From positions 1-41,021 of the forward strand of contig CASFLC010000085.1 in assembly GCA_949295475.1 (NCBI GenBank): a stretch of 41,021 nucleotides of DNA. Reading direction: 5' to 3'. The stretch is from an uncultured Pseudomonadota bacterium (GTDB lineage: Bacteria; Pseudomonadota; Alphaproteobacteria; RF32; CAG-239). The notes under the pieces are model-generated. The model made no database searches and was not told the DNA's origin. It was given only the letters and a program-made list of their open reading frames with translations. The position numbers were made by a program, and so were the translations under genes. This document shows positions 2,857-30,631 of the stretch, in pieces. How positions within the stretch are numbered: position 1 is the stretch's first letter; each line of letters opens with the position of its first letter.

Positions 2857-3794
2857 TAAAAGTTCCTTACGGTTTCGTCGGGCATGGCCCTCAGTGTTTT
2901 TTCAAGTTCCGGGTTGGCGGTTTTAGGCGCAATAATTTTTAATGTAATGATTTCGTCTCCTGCCGTACTTTTAGTTTTGATGCCTTTCCCTTTAAGACGC
3001 AGTTTTTCGCCGCTGGAAGCATAAGGCGGAATATTGACGATAACTTTGCCGCTGATGGTGGGGACGGTAACCTTTGCGCCCAAGACGGCTTCTTTGACGG
3101 TAATCGGCAGTTCCATCAGAATATTGCTGCCTTCAGCGCTGAAGTATGGGTGTTTGTCCACATTTAAGGTAATCAGCACATCGCCGGCAGGGCCGCCGTT
3201 GAAACTCGGCTGTCCCAGTCCTTTTAACCGCAGAGTTTGTCCGTCTGAGGTTCCGGCAGGGATTTTGACATTAATGTTTTTGCCGTTGATGCTGACGGTT
3301 TTTTCATCGCCGCGGGCGGCCGTCAGAAAGTCAATCCGCATGGTGTAGGCAATATCTTCGCCTTTGCGCGGCCGATGCGACGACGCTCCGCTGAAACCCT
3401 GAAAACCGCTGTTCCGGCCTCCTGCAAATTGTGAAAAAATATCATCTCCGAAAATGGAGGAAAAATCAAATCCGCCGGAGCCGCCGCCGAAAGGATTATC
3501 GCCTGTGTAAGTATATGTGCGGTATCCGTCGCTTCCGGCACCTCCGAATCCGGCGCCAAACCCGGTAGGTTTTCCATCGGCGTCAATTTCGTTGTTGTCG
3601 TATTTTTTGCGCTTTTCCTTATCGCCGAGAATGTCGTAAGCGCATGAAATTTCTTTGAATTTTTCAGCTGCGTCCGGATTGTCTTTGTTGAGGTCGGGGT
3701 GGTATTTGCGCGCCAGTTTACGGTATGCCGATTTGATTTCCGCATCGCCGGCATCTTTGCTTACGCCCAAGACATGATAAAGGTTTTTGTTCAT
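2856..3794 (-). CDS. Class B DnaJ co-chaperone (CbpA-like, no zinc finger)
   Basis: J domain with HPD (KYHPDLNK), G/F-rich linker, DnaJ_C domain. ATG at 3794 preferred over the upstream TTG at 3824. Confidence 0.92.
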
Positions 3795-3873
3795 CTTTTT
3801 TTTGCTCTTCGTAAAAATTTCCAATCTTATATGCTATATAGGAAGAACAAGTCTTTATTGCAAGCAGATCGGC

Positions 3874-4185
3874 TTATTTTGCGTCAATGTTCCGGCAGAC
3901 AAAAGTTGCCCGGCGGGCATTGTCCCGCTGCAGCGTGATTTTGTAAAGGGCGGCCTGTTTGTTGCCGCGGTCCTGACAATATTGCGCGGCTACGGGAGCC
4001 AGTTCGTCAACCCTGATATTGCGGTATTCGTAAGTGACGTAGAGCGGAGATTGACTGATAACCCGTGCATTGGCGGCCAGATAATTGTAATCCGGATCAA
4101 AAATTACTTCGGTTTCCTGATATCCGGTCAGAGAGCAGGCTGATGCCGCGGCGATTATACCCAGCAGGGCAAGTGTTTTTTTCAT
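3874..4185 (-). CDS. Hypothetical lipoprotein
   Basis: MKK, hydrophobic stretch, lipobox-like ASAC; two later Cys (QYC, FVC); GGAG RBS; ATGA overlap with the upstream ORF. Confidence 0.8.
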   Translation of the reverse strand: MKKTLALLGIIAAASACSLTGYQETEVIFDPDYNYLAANARVISQSPLYVTYEYRNIRVDELAPVAAQYCQDRGNKQAALYKITLQRDNARRATFVCRNIDAK

Positions 4186-4373
4186 GCGTTGAGACTCCTT
4201 CCACCAGATTTTTTGACACGGGATTTTGTTTTGACTTTTTCTTCGGGCGGAAGTTCGGACAATCCTTCAACCGGTTGATAAACGCCGTCGCGGATTTTGG
4301 CCGCAATAATCAACCGGCGTTTTTCCTGAAAACGTTTGAGGGCCTGCGTGTAATCGTAAGTAAAATTTTTCAT
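4182..4373 (-). CDS. Small basic hypothetical protein (63 aa)
   Basis: AAAGG RBS; coupled to the lipoprotein by an ATGA overlap; fills the gap exactly. Confidence 0.6.
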   Translation of the reverse strand: MKNFTYDYTQALKRFQEKRRLIIAAKIRDGVYQPVEGLSELPPEEKVKTKSRVKKSGGRSLNA

Positions 4374-4416
4374 GTCCGGTACCTTTGTCTTTTCAATCCC
4401 AGCATAGCACTTTCAG

Positions 4417-4432
4417 GTTAATCAAAGCTTAA
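4417..4432 (-). promoter_or_regulatory. Putative CtrA box
   Basis: Minus strand TTAA-GCTTTGA-TTAAC is an exact TTAA-N7-TTAAC consensus, followed by -10-like GCTATGCT. Confidence 0.45.
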
Positions 4433-4731
4433 TTGAGTTCGTTGTATATATCTTTGCCGGCGCGGAGCAGAATGTTGTAAATTCTGTTGTTGGTCGAGTT
4501 CTTGGTGCGGGTGTTCTGCAGTTTTTCCATCATGCGAGCCAACTTGCGGTTGAAGGCTTGATTTTGGCGCAGTTTTTCGATGTCGCGGAGATTTTCTTCA
4601 TCGTCGATTTTATAGTTAACCACAGCTTTGAGAGTTGCCATATACTGCGCTTCCTGCTGGGCGGCAAATTGAGCACGGGCAGGAAGAATCCAAAAGGTTG
4701 AAATTAAAAACGCGACGGCGGCGGCCCTCAT
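4429..4731 (-). CDS. Secreted hypothetical protein
   Basis: GGGAGG RBS before ATG 4731; signal peptide MRAAAVAFLISTFWILPARA; predicted helical mature part. Confidence 0.75.
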   Translation of the reverse strand: MRAAAVAFLISTFWILPARAQFAAQQEAQYMATLKAVVNYKIDDEENLRDIEKLRQNQAFNRKLARMMEKLQNTRTKNSTNNRIYNILLRAGKDIYNELN

Positions 4732-4832
4732 TTTATGCCTCCCTTTCAAATAAGGTATTGTTTTCATTTTGATAAATTATATACTACAAACATTCGAATC
4801 GTTTGACTACGGATTTTTGAAAGTTATCACAC

Positions 4833-5810
4833 ATGAAAAAAACTTTATGGGCTCTTTTTGACGACAGAGCGGGCAGCGTCGGTCAGGCTAAAGGGATTTT
4901 GCCGCTTTTGACCGACGATTTTGATGTTGAGATTAAAACGATAGTTTACAATCGTCTGGCAGCGTTGCCGAATTGTCTGTTGGGCGCCAGCCTGCGCGGC
5001 GTTGACCGTCGGAACAGTTCTTTGACGGAGCCGCCGTATCCTGATTTGATTCTTTCGGTCAGCCGCCGGACGGCGCCGATTGCCCGCTATATCAGAAAAA
5101 AGTCCGGCGGGCGCAGCAAAATCGTGCAGCTGATGTATCCGGGAAAATGCGGCTTGCGGGATATGGCGCTGGTCGTCGTTCCCGAGCATGACCGGCAGAA
5201 ATGTCCGAAAACCGAAAACATTTTCTTTGTGACCGGCTGTGCCCACAGAGTGACGCCTCAGGCAATGGCCGAAGCCGTCGCCCGCTGGGAAAGTGTTTTT
5301 GCGCCTCTGCCCAAACCGTGGACGACGGTAATCGTAGGCGGCGCAATTAAAGGAAAACCTTTCAGTGCCGATAATGCCGCTGCTTTGGGAAGCTTTTTGC
5401 AAAAGACGGTTAAGCAAACCGGTGGTTCGCTGCTGATTACGACATCCCGGAGGACGGGACAGGAGGCTGAAAATATTATAAAAAAAGCTGTTGAGGGTAT
5501 CCCCGCTTATACTTATTGGTGGGGAGAGCAAAAAGATAATCCGATAATGGGTTTTTATGCTCTTGCGGACAGAATCGTGGTGACCGGAGACACGGTGTCC
5601 ATGTGCAGCGAGGCCTGCGGCAGCGGCCGTCCCGTTCTTATCTTTTGCGGCAAAAACTGGCTGCAGCCCAAGCATGAGCGCTTTGTCCGCTCGTTGTGCG
5701 ACGGCGGTTATGCTGTTTTGGCAGAGGCTTCACAGGCTTTGTCTTTTGTTCCGACGCGGCGGCTTGATCCGGCGGCGGAAATCGCCGCAAAGATAAAATC
5801 TTTGTTTTAG
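4833..5810 (+). CDS. Mitochondrial-fission ELM1 family protein (DUF1022)
   Basis: D-RAGSVGQ, PPYPDL, VVPEHD, ITTSRRT, NPIMGFYALADRIVVTGDTVSMCSEA motifs. Confidence 0.9.
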   Translation: MKKTLWALFDDRAGSVGQAKGILPLLTDDFDVEIKTIVYNRLAALPNCLLGASLRGVDRRNSSLTEPPYPDLILSVSRRTAPIARYIRKKSGGRSKIVQLMYPGKCGLRDMALVVVPEHDRQKCPKTENIFFVTGCAHRVTPQAMAEAVARWESVFAPLPKPWTTVIVGGAIKGKPFSADNAAALGSFLQKTVKQTGGSLLITTSRRTGQEAENIIKKAVEGIPAYTYWWGEQKDNPIMGFYALADRIVVTGDTVSMCSEACGSGRPVLIFCGKNWLQPKHERFVRSLCDGGYAVLAEASQALSFVPTRRLDPAAEIAAKIKSLF

Positions 5811-6574
5811 TCTTCGAAAAAGAAATTGTCTTTATGCGGTTGGGAATCCTGAATTCCTTCCAGAGGTCCGGTCTTTTTGGTGGCGGCGACTTTTTGGTAA
5901 ATGCCGCCGAAGTATGTGCTTTTGCGCCAGATATAGTCGAATTTGTTTTTTGCGAAAGTTTCTATGCCGCGATCCCATAATTTTTCGACAAAGGGGTTGT
6001 AGAGGCGGTTGAACATCCGGATAAAATAGCGCAGCGGATTCCACCAATAGGGACTGTGATGGTCAATAAAAATGACGTTTCCGCCGTCTTTGACCAAATT
6101 CAAAGCGTTGTTGATGACTTTGCTTTTGGTAACGGGGGGAAGTTCCTGCAACAGCATAAAACAAATGACGCAGTCATATTTTTCTTCACTTTTATAAGTT
6201 GCGGCGTCTGCGCAGATAAAACGCAGCCCGGGGTAAATGTCGCCGTATTTTTCGCGGTTGCGGGATACCTGCAGGGAATTGATGTCAATGACGTCGATTT
6301 GTCCGTAGGCGCCGACGCGCATGGCAATTTCGTCTGTTTCTTTGCCGAAGACGGCTCCCATTTGGAGAATTCTCTGATTTTGCCGCAGTTCATGCAACAG
6401 CGCCGTGACCAGCCGGTTGTATTGAAACATACTGCGAAGCAGGCACGAAAAACGGCTGTCATATCTCAGGCTGCGGTTAAGATCTCCGTATATGCTTCCG
6501 TAAAAAAAGCTACTGTATGCGGGGACGGGCAGCGGCGTAATTTGGTCTTGTTCTATTGGTTTTGGCGTCATCAT
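5807..6574 (-). CDS. rquA: RquA-like rhodoquinone biosynthesis protein (class I SAM-dependent fold), divergent
   Basis: ILQMGAVFG (RquA QVACVYG-type, not GxGxG), DVIDI..LQ, FMLLQELP, IDHHSPYWWNPLRY, YNPFVEKLW and terminal YFGGIYQKV are colinear with recalled RquA. Start 6574 overlaps the Hpt stop (ATGA). Confidence 0.8.
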   Translation of the reverse strand: MMTPKPIEQDQITPLPVPAYSSFFYGSIYGDLNRSLRYDSRFSCLLRSMFQYNRLVTALLHELRQNQRILQMGAVFGKETDEIAMRVGAYGQIDVIDINSLQVSRNREKYGDIYPGLRFICADAATYKSEEKYDCVICFMLLQELPPVTKSKVINNALNLVKDGGNVIFIDHHSPYWWNPLRYFIRMFNRLYNPFVEKLWDRGIETFAKNKFDYIWRKSTYFGGIYQKVAATKKTGPLEGIQDSQPHKDNFFFED

Positions 6575-6915
6575 TGTTTTATTTTCCCTGAATTCAGATA
6601 TTCGGTTACTTTGTCGGTGCTTTCCAGGAAACTTCCGCGGATTTTTTGAATTTGCCGCGGAAGTTTGTGCAGCCGCCGGGCTAGGATGTTTTCTTCGGCC
6701 TCGGCACATAAGGCGGAAAATTCTTCCAGCCCGAAAACCAGACTGCCGGATTTCCAGTTGTGAAAGCAGTTTTTTTGTTCATCCGGCGTTTTCTGCTCAA
6801 AATTGTCCCAGTTGCGGGCGGAAACAGTCAAAAATTCATCCCATAACCGGCGGATTTTGGCGTTTCCGAAAACGGCGGCGTATTCTTGCAGGCGTTGTGT
6901 ATTAAACTTATTCAT
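6571..6915 (-). CDS. Stand-alone Hpt (histidine phosphotransfer) domain protein
   Basis: 114 aa, helical; FHNWKSGSLVFGLEEFSALCAEAE matches H-x-x-K-G/S-x-S-x3-G-x3-L-x3-C-x2-LE. Confidence 0.85.
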   Translation of the reverse strand: MNKFNTQRLQEYAAVFGNAKIRRLWDEFLTVSARNWDNFEQKTPDEQKNCFHNWKSGSLVFGLEEFSALCAEAEENILARRLHKLPRQIQKIRGSFLESTDKVTEYLNSGKIKQ

Positions 6916-7582
6916 TGGGCTTGATTAATCCGAGATGAGTGGCTTCCACGACCGCACCGGTGCGGTTGTAGACATTCAGCAGTTTCAAAATGGCGGTTAC
7001 GTGCAATTTGACGGTTCCTTCGGTAAGGCCGAGTTCGTAAGCAATTTGTTTGTTGGATTTTCCTTGAGAAATCAGGCGGATAACATCAATCTGCCGCGGG
7101 GACAGAATTTTGACTTTTTCTTTGACATCCTGCGTTTCGGGAATTTGTTCCACCTGTTTAAGGAGGTCAAATTTGTTTTGATTGGTGTTTTGCAGAAGTT
7201 CCGGCGGAATGTAGACGCCTCCGGACAGCACCAGATTAACGGCGCTGATGATAACGGCATTGGACGAGGCTTTGGAAATATATCCGGCGGCTCCGATTTC
7301 AATGCTTTTTTGCACGATTTCCTTATCGAAAACGGCAGAGAGGATAATTATCGGCGTTTCGGGAAGAGTGAGGTGAATCTTTTGGATGGCATCCAGCCAT
7401 TGGGAACCGGGCATGGCCAAATCGGTCAATACCAAGTTGAAATCTTTTTGTTTGTCGATGATTTTGAATATTTCAGAGTAGTCTTTGGCAAATACCAGCT
7501 GCGCATCCGGGTAATTGTCGCTTAAAATAAGCTCCAGTCCTTTGAGAAACAGTTCATGGTCATCCGCAACTAAAATTTTCAA
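6908..7582 (-). CDS. NarL/LuxR-family DNA-binding response regulator
   Basis: ILVADDH, LTDLAMPG (phospho-Asp), YISK, LuxR HTH LSPRQ..GKSNKQIAYELGLTEGTVKLHV. Confidence 0.95.
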   Translation of the reverse strand: MKILVADDHELFLKGLELILSDNYPDAQLVFAKDYSEIFKIIDKQKDFNLVLTDLAMPGSQWLDAIQKIHLTLPETPIIILSAVFDKEIVQKSIEIGAAGYISKASSNAVIISAVNLVLSGGVYIPPELLQNTNQNKFDLLKQVEQIPETQDVKEKVKILSPRQIDVIRLISQGKSNKQIAYELGLTEGTVKLHVTAILKLLNVYNRTGAVVEATHLGLIKPNE

Positions 7583-7597
7583 TGGCGTTCTCCTTTG

Positions 7598-8335
7598 TTA
7601 TTTCCAGTCTCCGACAGTCGCCTGCCAGAGCGTCAGTGCTGCGGCGACGGCAGTTTCCGCCCGCAGAATCCTCGGCCCGAGAGAAATTCCTCTGACAAAC
7701 GGCTGCCGACGCAGCAGATGCAGTTCTTCTTCCGAAAAACCGCCTTCCGGTCCGACCAGAATTGCGGCCGGCTTGCCTGCTGCGGTCCGGAATGTTTCCA
7801 GAGCCGGCTGCCCGCCGCCGCTTTCGTCCATCAGAAAGATTATTCTGTTTATATCCCAATTTTTTAAAATATTGGTTAAAGTCTGTACCGGTATAATTTC
7901 CGGCACATCCAGACGCCGGCATTGTTCCGCGGCTTCTATGGCCTGAGCCCGGTAACGTTCGGTGCGGACGGTGTCTGCGTTGGTGTAGGCCGTGTAAACC
8001 GGGCAGATTTTTGAAATGCCCAATTCGGTCGCTTTTTCAATAATGTAATCTGTACGTTCTTTTTTGACCGGGGCAAACAGCAGCCAAACATCAGGTACGG
8101 CTGCGAACGGCCGGAGCCGGCGTTTTGTTTGCAGAACGGTTTGCTTTTTGTGCGGCAGGATTACGGTGCAAAAATATTCGCCGTCTGTGCCGTTAAAGCA
8201 GACGATGTTTTCGCTTTGTTTTAGGCGCATGACGTTGCAGACGTAGTGGGACATGTCCGGCGAAAGGGTAAGTTCCCGGTTTTCGGAGAGCGGAACATCT
8301 ATGTACAAACGGGGCGGGTTTTTTGTTTTGCTCAT
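7598..8335 (-). CDS. rsmE: 16S rRNA m3U1498 methyltransferase RsmE
   Basis: HYVCNVMRL, EKATELG, EAAEQC, VGPEGGF, LGPRILRAETA. Confidence 0.96.
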   Translation of the reverse strand: MSKTKNPPRLYIDVPLSENRELTLSPDMSHYVCNVMRLKQSENIVCFNGTDGEYFCTVILPHKKQTVLQTKRRLRPFAAVPDVWLLFAPVKKERTDYIIEKATELGISKICPVYTAYTNADTVRTERYRAQAIEAAEQCRRLDVPEIIPVQTLTNILKNWDINRIIFLMDESGGGQPALETFRTAAGKPAAILVGPEGGFSEEELHLLRRQPFVRGISLGPRILRAETAVAAALTLWQATVGDWK

Positions 8336-8856
8336 GGCGTTACCCTGATGCGAAGGATGCGGCTTTGCAAACAGCGGCGGTCATCGGTTTGGTTGTCCAG
8401 ATATAGTTTTGTGGTTCCCGGGGTCACCGACAGGAATTCGATAATACGAACGTCATTTTGCTTTTGAGTACTGATCGGTTTGATGATGTTTTCGTTGGTG
8501 TCAATGTGCCAGGAGGTGTCGTTTGCTTCAGGCAGTTCCAGCTTCAAAATATAGTTTAAGGGGATTTTGACATTGCGCAAGTCAGCGGTCTGCAAGCTGA
8601 GCGTCAATACCGGCGCCGGCCGTTCGGGGAGAATCTTTTCGGCAATGGCTTCAAAATCCACGCTTTGTCCGCTGGGAACAGGGATAAAAACCGCGTCGGA
8701 GGCCGTTTGGTCTTTGTCTTTTTGAGGAACGGCGGCAGAGGCGCGCGCTACGTTTTGAAAAGAAAAGGCTTTCTGCGGACTTTGAGCGACAAAAGCCTGC
8801 GCCGGGCCGGCGAGGGCCGCCAAAACGGCAAGTAATGCAACAGGTGTTTTTTTCAT
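8332..8856 (-). CDS. Secreted protein with a C-terminal chagasin/I42-like Ig domain
   Basis: Signal peptide MKKTPVALLAVLAALAGPAQA; C-terminal LKLELPE..W..FLSVTPGTTKL..RIRV pattern of I42 inhibitors; ATGA overlap with rsmE. Confidence 0.6.
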   Translation of the reverse strand: MKKTPVALLAVLAALAGPAQAFVAQSPQKAFSFQNVARASAAVPQKDKDQTASDAVFIPVPSGQSVDFEAIAEKILPERPAPVLTLSLQTADLRNVKIPLNYILKLELPEANDTSWHIDTNENIIKPISTQKQNDVRIIEFLSVTPGTTKLYLDNQTDDRRCLQSRILRIRVTP

Positions 8857-8979
8857 TTTCTTTCTCCCCAAAACATTTCGTGGCATAAATCCGAAATTAT
8901 GGTGTACACCTTTAGTTTATCGGTTATTTTAACAAATAGAAAGTAAAATTTTGGTTACATTTGAGTTGCGGAATAAAGA

Positions 8980-9651
8980 ATGATTATTACGATAGACGGT
9001 CCGGCCGCCGCCGGAAAAGGAACTCTGGCAGGGAGCTTGTCCCGAAAATATAATCTGGCGTATTTTGATACCGGCATGGTTTACCGGGCTGTCGGATTGG
9101 AGATGGTCTTGACCCATCAGGATGTGAATGACGAAGGTTCGGCCGAGCGGGTGGCCAGGGAGCTGACCTTTCAAAAAATGCATCTGTTGGCCGAGAATCG
9201 GGATTTTCGTTCCGACGTGGGCGGAAAAGCGGCGTCCGTTGTGTCTGCGCATCCCAAAGTACGGGCGGCTCTGCTCAAAATGCAGCAGGATTTTTCTCTT
9301 AATCCGACATTTGCGGACGGGACACCCGCTGCGGGTGCTATTTATGACGGCAGGGATACCGGAACTGTGGTTTGTCCGCAGGCAGACGTTAAGTTTTTTG
9401 TGACGGCTTCGCCGGAAGTTCGGGCCATGCGCCGGTTTAAGGAATTTCAGCAAAAAGGAATCGAGACGACTTATGAAAAGGTGCTGGCGGATATGAAAGC
9501 GCGAGACGAGAGGGATTCCCAAAGGGCCGCCGCACCCCTGAAACCGGCTTCTGACGCGGTTATTCTCGATACTTCTGCTCTTTCAATCGAAGATGTTATC
9601 AAAAAAGCGGAAAAAATTATCTCTCAAAAGCAAAAATCGCTTGAAAAATAA
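8980..9651 (+). CDS. cmk: Cytidylate kinase
   Basis: ITIDGPAAAGKGT, DTGMVYRA, DGRDTGTVVCPQA, RDERDSQR; lies upstream of rpsA. Confidence 0.96.
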   Translation: MIITIDGPAAAGKGTLAGSLSRKYNLAYFDTGMVYRAVGLEMVLTHQDVNDEGSAERVARELTFQKMHLLAENRDFRSDVGGKAASVVSAHPKVRAALLKMQQDFSLNPTFADGTPAAGAIYDGRDTGTVVCPQADVKFFVTASPEVRAMRRFKEFQQKGIETTYEKVLADMKARDERDSQRAAAPLKPASDAVILDTSALSIEDVIKKAEKIISQKQKSLEK

Positions 9652-28942: not shown

Positions 28943-30631
28943 CTATAATTTCTTTTTGGCAAGATTTTTTATCGGCGGAAATGACAGCGTAAAGCAACTT
29001 CCAGTGCCGACTTTACTTTTGACGCGGATATGTCCGCCGAATTTTTCTACGATGGATTTAGATATTGACAAGCCCAAGCCGTTGCCTTTTTGCGTACTGT
29101 CATGTCCGTCGGAAAAGAACGGATCAAAAATACGATTCAGGTTTTCCGGCGGAATTCCCACGCCGGTATCTGCAAAAGATATTTTGACGCCGCGGGCGTT
29201 TTTTTTGATTTCTATATTTATTTCGCCTTTGTCTTCAATGGCTTTGAGGGCGTTGAGGATAATATTAATTGCCACCATTTTAAAATCGGCCTCGTTTCCG
29301 AAAATACAGGCGGGTTCTTTGGGCGGTACGAAGGAAATGTTGATGCCTTTGCTTTTGGCCTCAAAGTCAAGCAGGGCAATGACGTCTTCGACGGCGGCCG
29401 CACAGTTTATTTTTTGTTCGCCGTCGCTGTTGCTGCGGGTCAATTTTAAAAGACGTTCGGGAACATCAATGCAGTTGAGCAACTCGTTGTAAATCAGGGT
29501 AAGATGTTTCTTTTCTTCATCGTCGTCGGGGCGTTTGGCATAAAATTTGTCAATCAGGCGTTCGGTAATAATGCGCAACGCGCCAAGGTGATTTTTAATC
29601 TCATGGGCAATTGAAGTAGAAAGGAAACCCAGAGAAGACAATTTTTGCTGATGAGAGAAATTGATGTCATCGCTCAAGTCACGGATTGATTCAACGATAT
29701 ATTTTTCTTTGCCGGTGTGGTGCAGCGGGGCAGCGTTGATTGACAAGTGTCGGGAAGGATGCCCGCAGAATTGCTGAATAACTTTGATGTTATCCTGCTT
29801 GTTTTTGAGAATGGCCTGAACGGGGCAGTACTGTTTTTCCCGGGAGCAGGGAATGTTCAGATTTTGAGACGCCTGGTGGCATTTGGTATATTTGGCCTGA
29901 CTGCCGCCGACTTGTTTGCGGTAGGCCTTGTTTGAGATGATAATGTTGTAGTTTTTATCAATAACGCGGATGCCGTCGGGGATGCTGTCAATCAGTGCTT
30001 GCAAAAATGCTTCCTGTTCTTTGGCCTCGGAAATAAATTTGCGCAGATTGTCAAGCATGTTGTTAAACGTTATAGTCAGAAAATACAGTTCGTCGGTGAA
30101 TTTTGGGCGCTTTTGGTTTTCTATTCGAACGGAAAGGTCTCCCTGTGAGACTTTTTGAGAAACGTCGGTGATTTTGTTGATCGGGTAAAGAATCCACCAG
30201 TTAATCAGGTATCCCAGAAAGAAAATGGCCAGAATAATCAGAATCGAACTGATGCCCAAGATTTTCATACTTTCGCTGATGGCTCTGTACCGTTCGTCAA
30301 AACTACGGGTGTTTTCCCGGATTTGCTTTTGTTCCAACGACAGAAGCTTGATTTGTTTTTCGTCGTTGGCGTCGGTTGAGATACTTGTCAGAATGCCCGG
30401 GGTGACGCTTATCTCAGGGTGATTGGCTATAATTCTTCGGAATTCTTTAGTGATATTGATATTGCGGTACAAAAGATCGATATATTGCTGGTTTCGCTGA
30501 ATGGAGTAGTTTTGTTCTTCCTGAATTTTGTTGCCGTATACGATGTAAAAGGTATATACAAAGATTATTGAGGTTATCAAAAACAGCGAAAAAATACTGT
30601 AGATAATCTTTTTATTCAGACTGACAAACAT
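28943..30631 (-). CDS. Membrane sensor histidine kinase (TM-periplasmic-TM-HAMP-PAS-HisKA-HATPase)
   Basis: HAMP (PINKI..GDLS..DEL..TFNNM), PAS (DSIPDGIRVID), H box AHEIKNHL, N box NIILNA, DTGVGI, FDPFFS, GNGLGL. Confidence 0.94.
   Translation of the reverse strand: MFVSLNKKIIYSIFSLFLITSIIFVYTFYIVYGNKIQEEQNYSIQRNQQYIDLLYRNINITKEFRRIIANHPEISVTPGILTSISTDANDEKQIKLLSLEQKQIRENTRSFDERYRAISESMKILGISSILIILAIFFLGYLINWWILYPINKITDVSQKVSQGDLSVRIENQKRPKFTDELYFLTITFNNMLDNLRKFISEAKEQEAFLQALIDSIPDGIRVIDKNYNIIISNKAYRKQVGGSQAKYTKCHQASQNLNIPCSREKQYCPVQAILKNKQDNIKVIQQFCGHPSRHLSINAAPLHHTGKEKYIVESIRDLSDDINFSHQQKLSSLGFLSTSIAHEIKNHLGALRIITERLIDKFYAKRPDDDEEKKHLTLIYNELLNCIDVPERLLKLTRSNSDGEQKINCAAAVEDVIALLDFEAKSKGINISFVPPKEPACIFGNEADFKMVAINIILNALKAIEDKGEINIEIKKNARGVKISFADTGVGIPPENLNRIFDPFFSDGHDSTQKGNGLGLSISKSIVEKFGGHIRVKSKVGTGSCFTLSFPPIKNLAKKKL

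Follow-up and report, generated by a model that had tools for sequence, protein, structure and literature searches.

The window, by which we mean the whole stretch of DNA analysed here (41,021 nt of contig CASFLC010000085.1, assembly GCA_949295475.1, from an uncultured alphaproteobacterium; this genome assembly is labelled G000), carries three closely packed genes for a response regulator (RR), a histidine phosphotransfer (Hpt) protein and an enzyme of the RquA family. Comparisons of related sequences indicate that these genes are a signalling-plus-enzyme cassette inherited in a clade of fermentative gut Alphaproteobacteria with small genomes (1.2-2 Mb). In what follows, labels beginning with L denote individual loci, and those beginning with G denote genomes. 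Starting from the upstream gene, the cassette consists of:

6908..7582, minus strand: NarL/FixJ-type RR, 224 amino acids, with a TTG start codon and the sequence AAGGAG ahead of it
6571..6915, minus strand: stand-alone Hpt protein, 114 amino acids, with the phospho-accepting residue His52
5807..6574, minus strand: RquA-family S-adenosylmethionine (SAM)-dependent enzyme, 255 amino acids

When the DNA was read directly, the TAA codon of the regulator gene (6908-6910) was found inside the start region of the Hpt gene, the two genes having the string ATGAATAA in common (an overlap of 8 nt), and the TGA codon of the Hpt gene (6571-6573) was found to overlap the ATG codon of rquA (6572-6574) as ATGA. 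The rquA reading frame spans 5807..6709, and the product of 255 amino acids starts inside this frame, with the ATG at 6574. The cassette has no kinase gene next to it; the nearest one encodes an orphan kinase about 21 kb away (28943-30631). An initial annotation, made from the sequence of the window, had reported both overlaps and the tight coupling that they imply, the absence of a kinase from the operon, a NarL-type regulator with intact DD/D/S/K residues, and the assignment of the other two genes as a stand-alone Hpt gene and an rquA-like gene. All of these descriptions were borne out.

The regulator matched the Pfam families Response_reg (68.5 bits) and GerE (63.3 bits), and its residues D7, D8, D54, S82 and K104 were invariant in all 23 aligned regulators. 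The phospho-acceptor site is complete, and the protein has both the receiver pocket and the GerE/LuxR-type helix-turn-helix of the NarL/FixJ family. The best NCBIfam model was ErdR (NF041830, ErdR/CrbR-type regulators); the score of 128.9 bits is far under the cut-off of 390, and by the rule of NCBI the window RR is therefore not a member of that family. Identity to same-genus orthologues was 73-84%, the highest in the cassette block. As the most conserved protein of the block, the RR probably has many targets, its own gene string among them. The same genome encodes, on contig C107 (267-905, minus strand; locus L042), a further orphan regulator of the NarL type that has 42% identity to the window RR. 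Its best NCBIfam model was likewise ErdR, at 141.1 bits and under the cut-off, and its gene lies at the contig end beside a dCMP-deaminase-like gene and an enolase gene (neighbours named by eye).

With Pfam PF01627 the window Hpt scored 18.5 bits and did not reach the gathering threshold of 24.6, and 16 of 19 orthologues matched the same family at E ≤ 0.1 (best E 6.2e-9). A profile of the Hpt family matched LuxU (1y6d, E 1.9e-5) and the Hpt domains 7c1i and 3myf in PDB. H52 and G62 were invariant in all 46 sequences, the H-x-x-K/R...G motif was present, and H52 was aligned with the histidine of the LuxU motif in the profile alignment. The AlphaFold model (pLDDT 92.1) has five helices. When it was compared with known structures by Foldseek, ranks 1 to 11 were all Hpt proteins with TM scores of 0.69-0.81 (E-values 0.028-0.17, none ≤ 0.001), and the highest score, 0.81, was obtained with HptB of Pseudomonas aeruginosa (7c1i). 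Judged from the model, the product of the middle gene has the Hpt fold, with its four-helix bundle. It was the sole Hpt protein detected in G000, both with Pfam and with the family profile run over 13,053 six-frame open reading frames. In a search of 1.84 billion representative sequences, the profile found 2387 proteins at E ≤ 1e-3. The closest were mostly stand-alone proteins of 106-122 amino acids; some matches were terminal domains of long proteins, and the search as a whole gave no pointer to a cognate kinase. A search for longer homologues with the Hpt alignment (E ≤ 1e-3) yielded no fused Hpt form, which is weak evidence.

The enzyme encoded by the third gene scored 181.3 bits with the NCBIfam equivalog model of RquA, NF038261, a marginal pass at a cut-off of 175; the next best family scored 37 bits. 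All 36 same-genus genomes contained one strong match each to this model, 28 above the cut-off and eight below it (133.8-171.1 bits), and rquA was intact in all of them. Between close pairs, dN/dS of rquA was 0.029-0.097 (eight of 12 pairs with computable dS). For the two unsaturated pairs the values were 0.069 and 0.083 for rquA, 0.033 and 0.052 for the RR gene and 0.081 and 0.061 for the Hpt gene. These ratios indicate that RquA is under strong purifying selection and is functional rather than decaying.

The cassette is flanked by the following genes and features:

7598..8335, minus strand: rsmE, 16S rRNA U1498 methyltransferase (NF008696, 306 bits against a cut-off of 234)
8332..8886, minus strand: orf184, signal-peptide-like product without a match in Pfam or NCBIfam
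8887..8979, no strand: divergent intergenic region between orf184 and cmk, 93 nt of non-coding DNA and a probable promoter region
4833..5810, plus strand: ELM1-family (PF06258) gene, 229.4 bits with Pfam Mito_fiss_Elm1

The ELM1 gene is convergent with rquA, the stop codons of the two genes overlap, and it marks the downstream edge of a syntenic frame. The order RR-Hpt-rquA, whose conservation across related metagenome-assembled genomes (MAGs) the initial annotation had proposed as a check, was indeed retained: RsmE-RR-Hpt-RquA-ELM1, with ELM1 convergent, was found in 17 of 17 same-genus loci. The proteins encoded there were identical to those of the window at 73-84% of positions for RR, 33-44% for Hpt, 50-60% for RquA and 49-61% for RsmE. 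With start codons assigned by script, the spacing of the RR and Hpt genes was -17 to +26 nt, and that of the Hpt and rquA genes was -38 to +68 nt. For a wider survey, one genome per species was taken and the best 80 of 532 RquA relatives were classed with custom profiles and tblastn. Most of these 80 loci came from gut or faecal alphaproteobacterial MAGs, such as 'Proteobacteria bacterium CAG:495', and were distributed over the arrangements as follows:

RR-Hpt-RquA: 44 loci
RR-RquA: 14 loci
RsmE-RquA with nothing between: 6 loci (L097, L099-L103)
RsmE-Hpt-RquA: 1 locus (L119)
hybrid kinase-Hpt-RquA: 1 locus (L109)
RR-[PAS-PAS-HisKA-HATPase-REC-Hpt]-RquA: 1 locus (L110)
no two-component gene within 3.5 kb: 13 loci, from large-genome environmental bacteria (L117 is cut just upstream of rquA)

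Throughout the gut clade rsmE stood directly upstream of the cassette, and the ELM1 gene followed rquA in most of the loci of that clade. L109 and L110 have no RsmE frame and are therefore contexts independent of inherited synteny. In L110 the regulator is 48% identical to the window RR versus 35% to the C107 paralogue of the window genome, and the genome that carries this locus has a true UbiA (311.7 bits at a cut-off of 275.45). A quick RquA tree (SH-aLRT support in brackets) placed the 65 framed sequences on one side (96) and united the 13 sequences without two-component neighbours in a clade (98) with L110 as its sister (93); L109 and L115 stood on long branches near the base, between the gut clade and the clade of 13. 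L109 is the same locus as L002, and L115 the same as L003. Because the association recurs in three architectures, the link between rquA and His-Asp relays is probably both old and functional.

The hybrid kinase gene of L109, from a sheep-colon MAG, lies directly upstream of Hpt-rquA (3557-4843, plus strand). The encoded kinase is without a sensor domain: its H box follows the first methionine by about 10 residues, and HATPase and REC domains come after it. RibF and LspA, named by eye, are encoded after rquA at this locus.

In the window, the distance from the end of rsmE to the TTG codon of the RR gene is 15 nt, with AAGGAG between them, and orf184 and rsmE overlap by 4 nt. This packing suggests that the likely transcription unit is the five-gene string orf184-rsmE-RR-Hpt-rquA, with the cassette as its tail, and not a free-standing operon of three genes; orf184 would then be the probable first gene of the unit. 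By tblastn, 22 of the 80 loci were found to have a relative of orf184 ahead of rsmE (22-39% identity). The divergent intergenic region includes, at about 8940-8958, a conserved stretch of some 19 nt with the pattern GTAAC/T-N-AAAA-T/G-TTTACTTT; of 22 upstream regions taken from relatives, 19 showed it on inspection by eye. This element could serve the orf184-rsmE-RR-Hpt-rquA string as its promoter or operator, or else cmk-rpsA. A perfect 10-nt palindrome at 8901-8910 was considered as an operator and dismissed, as it occurred once in G000 and in none of the 22 upstream regions of relatives.

All known isoprenoid-quinone pathways need a prenyltransferase of the UbiA superfamily. No match to the UbiA family was detected in G000, and matches were detected in three of 41 genus genomes, by a search that was positive in 14 of 14 control genomes; like the absences reported below, this result refers to MAGs and to selected Pfam families. 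The three genus matches did not qualify as quinone genes: the two that were scanned were closest to models of decaprenyl-phosphate phosphoribosyltransferase (DPPRT), one of them above the DPPRT cut-off and the other weak and below it, and the third (L128) was outside the scan. The 41 genomes contained no full-length FAD_binding_2 protein that could be SdhA or FrdA, only short N-terminal Rossmann matches; one long FAD_binding_2 fragment was likewise rejected, being closest to the L-aspartate oxidase (NadB) model. CydA, NuoD, COX1, DsbB, NrfD and Ni_hydr_CYTB were each absent from all five near-complete genus genomes. SdhA/FrdA was also absent from seven distinct other small RquA-bearing genomes (four relatives and five locus-derived genomes, G065-G069, two being common to both sets), which include the 'Azospirillum sp. 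51_20' type and the genome of L110. As a positive control, full-length SdhA/FrdA of at least 400 bits was present in five of five large-genome RquA bearers.

Since neither quinone synthesis nor fumarate reductase was found, RquA cannot serve endogenous rhodoquinone-dependent fumarate reduction in this genus. The initial annotation had read the cassette as a redox- or O2-responsive relay that switches ubiquinone to rhodoquinone for anaerobic fumarate reduction, and the listing of ubi and frd/sdh genes that it had called for turned out negative. Certain facts do agree with such a switch: the assignment to the RquA family holds, rquA of Rhodospirillum rubrum was among the genes at least 3-fold higher under anaerobic conditions in the available portion of PMC6529003 (which names no regulator), and at L110 rquA is linked to a kinase gene in a genome that also encodes a true UbiA. 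Against it stand the lack of SdhA/FrdA in the 41 genus genomes and the seven other small ones as opposed to its presence in all five large-genome bearers, the failure to identify a quinone prenyltransferase in the genus or complex I in its five near-complete genomes, and the absence from the window of a sensor of any kind linked to the cassette. Taking these together, we consider the switch highly improbable. Ubiquinone scavenged from outside, which the initial annotation had mentioned as a possibility, is the sole route by which RquA could have its known substrate here.

Within the families searched, the genus yielded a single membrane redox complex, Rnf. It was matched in 16 of 16 genus genomes, and in G000 RnfBCDGEA and ApbE were identified; the complete cluster lies on contig C82 (11300-17750; L136) in the order ApbE, RnfB, C, D, G, E, A. 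The possibility that this match is the quinone reductase Na+-NQR was rejected, all six subunits scoring above the Rnf and below the Nqr subfamily cut-offs. The presence of Rnf fits a ferredoxin-based fermentative metabolism, in which the genus would conserve energy by Rnf.

The origin of the phosphate for the Hpt was sought among the other signalling proteins of G000. There were ten HATPase_c matches, seven of them histidine kinases and three that look by eye like GyrB, MutL and HtpG, and nine receiver-domain matches. The sole hybrid kinase of G000 (contig C72, 1463-4117) is a full-length match to the Brucella CckA model, with 571 bits at a cut-off of 1000. The check on hybrid kinases suggested with the initial annotation thus yielded only a CckA-like enzyme and none dedicated to the Hpt. 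As there is no dedicated hybrid kinase, the phosphate would have to come from the receiver of the CckA-like kinase or from a single-domain receiver; of the latter, two or three each were found in the five near-complete genus genomes. A ChpT-like gene (contig C89, 125-789, minus strand; L043, L137) scored 28.2 bits with PF10090 (cut-off 22.9) and stands beside a gene for a single-domain receiver of 121 amino acids. Of 13 genus genomes, 11 gave a CtrA match of about 400 bits. CtrA was missing from G000 and G015; both assemblies are fragmented, which fits an assembly gap as the reason for its absence from G000. The idea that CtrA is missing, so that the CckA-like kinase may feed the Hpt, was abandoned in view of CtrA in those 11 genomes and of the ChpT-like gene.

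Two orphan kinases are encoded in G000. The one in the window (28943-30631, minus strand) is a membrane kinase with HAMP, PAS, HisKA and HATPase domains, a cysteine-rich stretch in the PAS region and no RR gene adjoining it. This kinase might sense redox state or metals as an input, and might act upstream of one of the orphan regulators. The other (C82, 5732-7144) was the best match to the kinase cores of L110 and L109, and was set aside as a partner at 27-29% identity, which is too weak.

A total of 67 gut-clade RquAs were compared with 14 environmental ones from respiring, SdhA/FrdA-bearing bacteria. Among the environmental sequences, 63 columns were conserved in 13 or all 14, and the window RquA deviates at 24 of these columns, including H143Q, H179N and E193N. 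Q71, D97, D134, E144, P146, D171, P194, G223 and Q227 were kept by all or nearly all of the gut-clade sequences, and the following positions were found to be relaxed:

H143: kept in 34 of 67, replaced by Q, S, K
D123: kept in 50 of 67, replaced by N
H173: kept in 48 of 67, replaced by Y, A, G, N
H179: kept in 57 of 67, replaced by N
E193: kept in 2 of 67, replaced by H, Q, N

The window enzyme itself has Q143, N179 and N193 and retains the invariant D97 as well as D123, which were matched to D118 and D143 of the R. rubrum enzyme by fold position alone, without the R. rubrum sequence.

These differences bear on the possibility that RquA has been repurposed, in the sense that it belongs to the signalling cassette and binds or converts an external quinone or small molecule as a signal, or modifies another substrate under the control of the RR. 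The relaxation in the gut clade of residues that are invariant in respiring RquAs would be expected if this were so, as would selection that is still strongly purifying in a genus in which the searches revealed neither quinone synthesis nor an enzyme that uses quinones, and which has no dedicated kinase for the Hpt. The hybrid kinase of L109, moreover, has no sensor domain, so that some other protein must supply its input. On the other hand, the enzyme retains the putative SAM-site aspartates and the majority of residues that are invariant in the family, the score is still above the RquA equivalog cut-off, six gut-clade loci have RquA without an adjoining signalling gene, and no fused RquA-signalling protein was found among the longer homologues at E ≤ 1e-10, although the last point is weak evidence. 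A prediction of the RquA-Hpt complex scored 0.00 against a mark of 0.32; it was run without controls and is evidence neither way. On balance, we regard such a change of role as unlikely. A more specific form of it, in which RquA would be the chemical arm of the signalling cassette by taking up ubiquinone of host cells or of respiring neighbours and binding or aminating it, seems quite unlikely to us. So does its corollary, that through the Hpt and the NarL-type RR the cell would read 'host surface or oxic neighbours nearby' and that the sensor-less kinase of L109 would represent the ancestral form. If this were true, an RquA enzyme would for the first time be seen in signalling, and His-Asp relays would have gained an input of a new kind.

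In the mechanism that we prefer, a receiver encoded elsewhere would pass phosphate to His52 of the Hpt, which would hand it on to Asp54 of the RR. This receiver may be that of the CckA-like hybrid kinase, or else a single-domain protein that obtains its phosphate from an orphan kinase. The RR would then adjust the transcription of its own string, rquA included, and probably that of many other genes. The most likely remaining role of RquA would be the SAM-dependent amination of a scavenged benzoquinone, that is, of ubiquinone obtained from the host, the diet or neighbouring bacteria. As to its origin, the cassette probably derives from a locus resembling L110, at which a Rhodospirillales bacterium that makes ubiquinone encodes, in a row, an RR, a kinase of the unorthodox type to which REC and Hpt domains are fused, and RquA; in the gut clade the kinase would have gone from the locus, leaving the Hpt to stand alone, and the respiratory chain would have been lost from the genome. 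Taken jointly, the propositions that the Hpt feeds the regulator, that the regulator controls the string including rquA, and that RquA acts on scavenged benzoquinone are in our estimate about evenly balanced between being right and being wrong.

A number of observations weigh against this mechanism. Co-transcription and autoregulation are read from the packing of the genes, and a consensus promoter scan of 5500-9200 gave four promoter-like sites as compared with 3.6 in shuffled sequences; a terminator scan of the same region gave seven terminator-like sites versus 7.4 in shuffles. Among the sequencing runs listed as containing 5700-8950 (17 entries from eight studies) there were none of RNA, all being of DNA or of unknown type. 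All five near-complete genus genomes have a single hybrid kinase (frames of 875-886 amino acids), CckA-like in G000, and the CckA-like kinase has a ChpT-like partner and a CtrA of its own. Positions invariant in respiring bacteria vary in the gut clade, and the chemistry of RquA may therefore have changed; it is also possible that a quinone-using enzyme lies outside the selected families. The gut clade shares the RsmE...RquA-ELM1 frame, so that most of the conservation is inheritance, and it could be inheritance alone. The independent contexts are only two, L109 and L110, both are from MAGs, and the regulator frame of L110 looks truncated. Within the genus, L065 is without the Hpt and L119 without the RR (one species each). 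RquA is also kept without the regulator: in G068, of the RsmE-RquA type, the best match to the regulator was just 39%, and in G075, which carries L119, no regulator orthologue was found at E ≤ 1e-15.

Several of these observations would be accounted for if the synteny had no functional meaning, the RR and the Hpt being a general pair with unrelated targets, the old order being kept in a compact genome and rquA being expressed constitutively with rsmE. The frame RsmE-[RR]-[Hpt]-RquA-ELM1 extends over the whole gut clade, six of its loci have RsmE-RquA without a regulator, L119 and L065 have lost the RR and the Hpt, respectively, and RquA is retained where an orthologue of the regulator was not found. 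The housekeeping gene rsmE is only 15 nt upstream, and the higher conservation of the RR relative to RquA and RsmE is a pattern that fits a regulator with many targets. This explanation does not, in contrast, provide for rquA standing beside phosphorelay genes in L109 and L110 as well, in a different architecture and without the RsmE frame, nor for the closer similarity of the L110 regulator to the window RR than to the paralogue in the window genome. Moreover, the overlaps or very short gaps between the RR, Hpt and rquA genes persist across the genus despite a divergence of 40-65% in the Hpt protein. Synteny without function is therefore possible, but in our view rather doubtful.

The cassette and its proposed relay through Hpt and RR can be compared with several known systems. 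R. rubrum RquA (Rru_A3227) belongs to the NCBIfam equivalog family in which the window RquA also scored above the cut-off, and the two have in common a methyltransferase fold of class I and a first SAM motif that is atypical; by position in the fold, D97 and D123 of the window enzyme would correspond to its two acidic SAM-site residues. The R. rubrum enzyme is described in the accessible part of PMC9814641 as SAM- and Mn2+-dependent and as converting ubiquinone to rhodoquinone, with D118 and D143 as SAM-site aspartates required for activity. Expression in E. coli, which makes UQ8, followed by LC-MS for RQ8 has been applied to this enzyme and to the RquAs of 15 other species (PMC9814641, PMC11707229). 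In contrast to it, the window gene is packed behind RR and Hpt genes, in a host without ubiquinone pathway, fumarate reductase or complex I. The difference from the respiring RquAs (13-14 sequences) lies in Q143, N179 and N193 of the window enzyme, which occupy the places of their invariant residues.

The Hpt resembles LuxU of Vibrio (LuxN/LuxQ to LuxU to LuxO) and HptB of P. aeruginosa in being a monomeric four-helix-bundle protein of about 115 residues with the motif His-x-x-Lys/Arg...Gly; LuxU was the best sequence-profile match and HptB the best structural match. The relays of LuxU and HptB are fed by several hybrid kinases, whereas the window genome has one, which is CckA-like and has its own ChpT, and the output in the window would be a NarL-type regulator encoded immediately upstream of the Hpt.

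ArcB of the Escherichia coli ArcB-ArcA system is an unorthodox kinase that senses the quinone pool and has a fused Hpt domain, and ArcA is a regulator of the OmpR type. Its resemblance to the arrangement described here is that of a His-Asp-His-Asp relay tied to quinones; the kinase of L110 has the same HK-REC-Hpt layout, and the Hpt domain of ArcB (1a0b) gave a TM score of 0.71 with the model of the window Hpt. The window cassette differs in that it has no kinase in or near it, that the Hpt is a separate gene and the RR of the NarL type, and that the link is to the gene of a quinone-modifying enzyme and not to a known quinone-sensing domain.

The initial annotation stated that no description of such an operon was known, and our full-text literature search agrees with this. 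No paper was found that joins rhodoquinone with a histidine kinase, and the combination of rquA and response regulator returned unrelated subjects, as judged from titles and the beginnings of abstracts. Within the searchable literature, which leaves most subscription journals outside, both the link between rquA and a phosphorelay and the regulation of bacterial rquA are undescribed. The presence of rquA in six human-gut alphaproteobacteria termed 'MAG Azo/Aceto' is reported in parts of PMC5953543, where they are considered possible donors of eukaryotic rquA; the neighbours given in the section of that paper on rquA context are respiratory and anaerobiosis genes, with no signalling gene among them, and another passage proposes that some eukaryotic bearers of rquA without ubiquinone synthesis may take ubiquinone from prey. 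Rhodoquinone is treated as inferred where ubiquinone is made in the available portions of PMC11707229 and PMC13386864, which make no mention of rquA in quinone-less genomes. Gut Rhodospirillales MAGs with [FeFe]-hydrogenase and PFO are described in PMC4967309, whose accessible text contains neither the word 'quinone' nor the word 'fumarate'.

The one task for which RquA is known is the conversion of ubiquinone to rhodoquinone that allows complex II to run backwards as fumarate reductase. What is new in the present case is the physical tie between rquA and genes of a His-Asp phosphorelay, seen in a large group of animal-gut Alphaproteobacteria and, outside that group, in two or more arrangements that are unrelated. 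This tie provides a concrete candidate for the regulator of rquA. It is also new that rquA is strictly conserved in a gut group in which the synthesis of its substrate and the known use of its product are both absent. Either these bacteria live on scavenged quinones by means of a rhodoquinone-dependent enzyme not yet recognized, or there is a second function within the RquA family. As the gut-clade RquA has been proposed as a possible donor of the eukaryotic gene (in the parts of PMC5953543 cited above), its role bears on how anaerobic protists acquired rhodoquinone.

Two further observations concern the metabolism of these bacteria. Dihydroorotate dehydrogenase (PF01180) was found in one of 16 genus genomes (those at least 95% complete, plus G000), which hints that de novo pyrimidine synthesis is missing in the genus. 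The UbiA-family genes of the relatives L127, L139 and L140 scored 259-291 bits with a DPPRT model whose cut-off is 234; such genes are unexpected for Alphaproteobacteria, and their similarity to DPPRT suggests an arabinan-type envelope glycan pathway.

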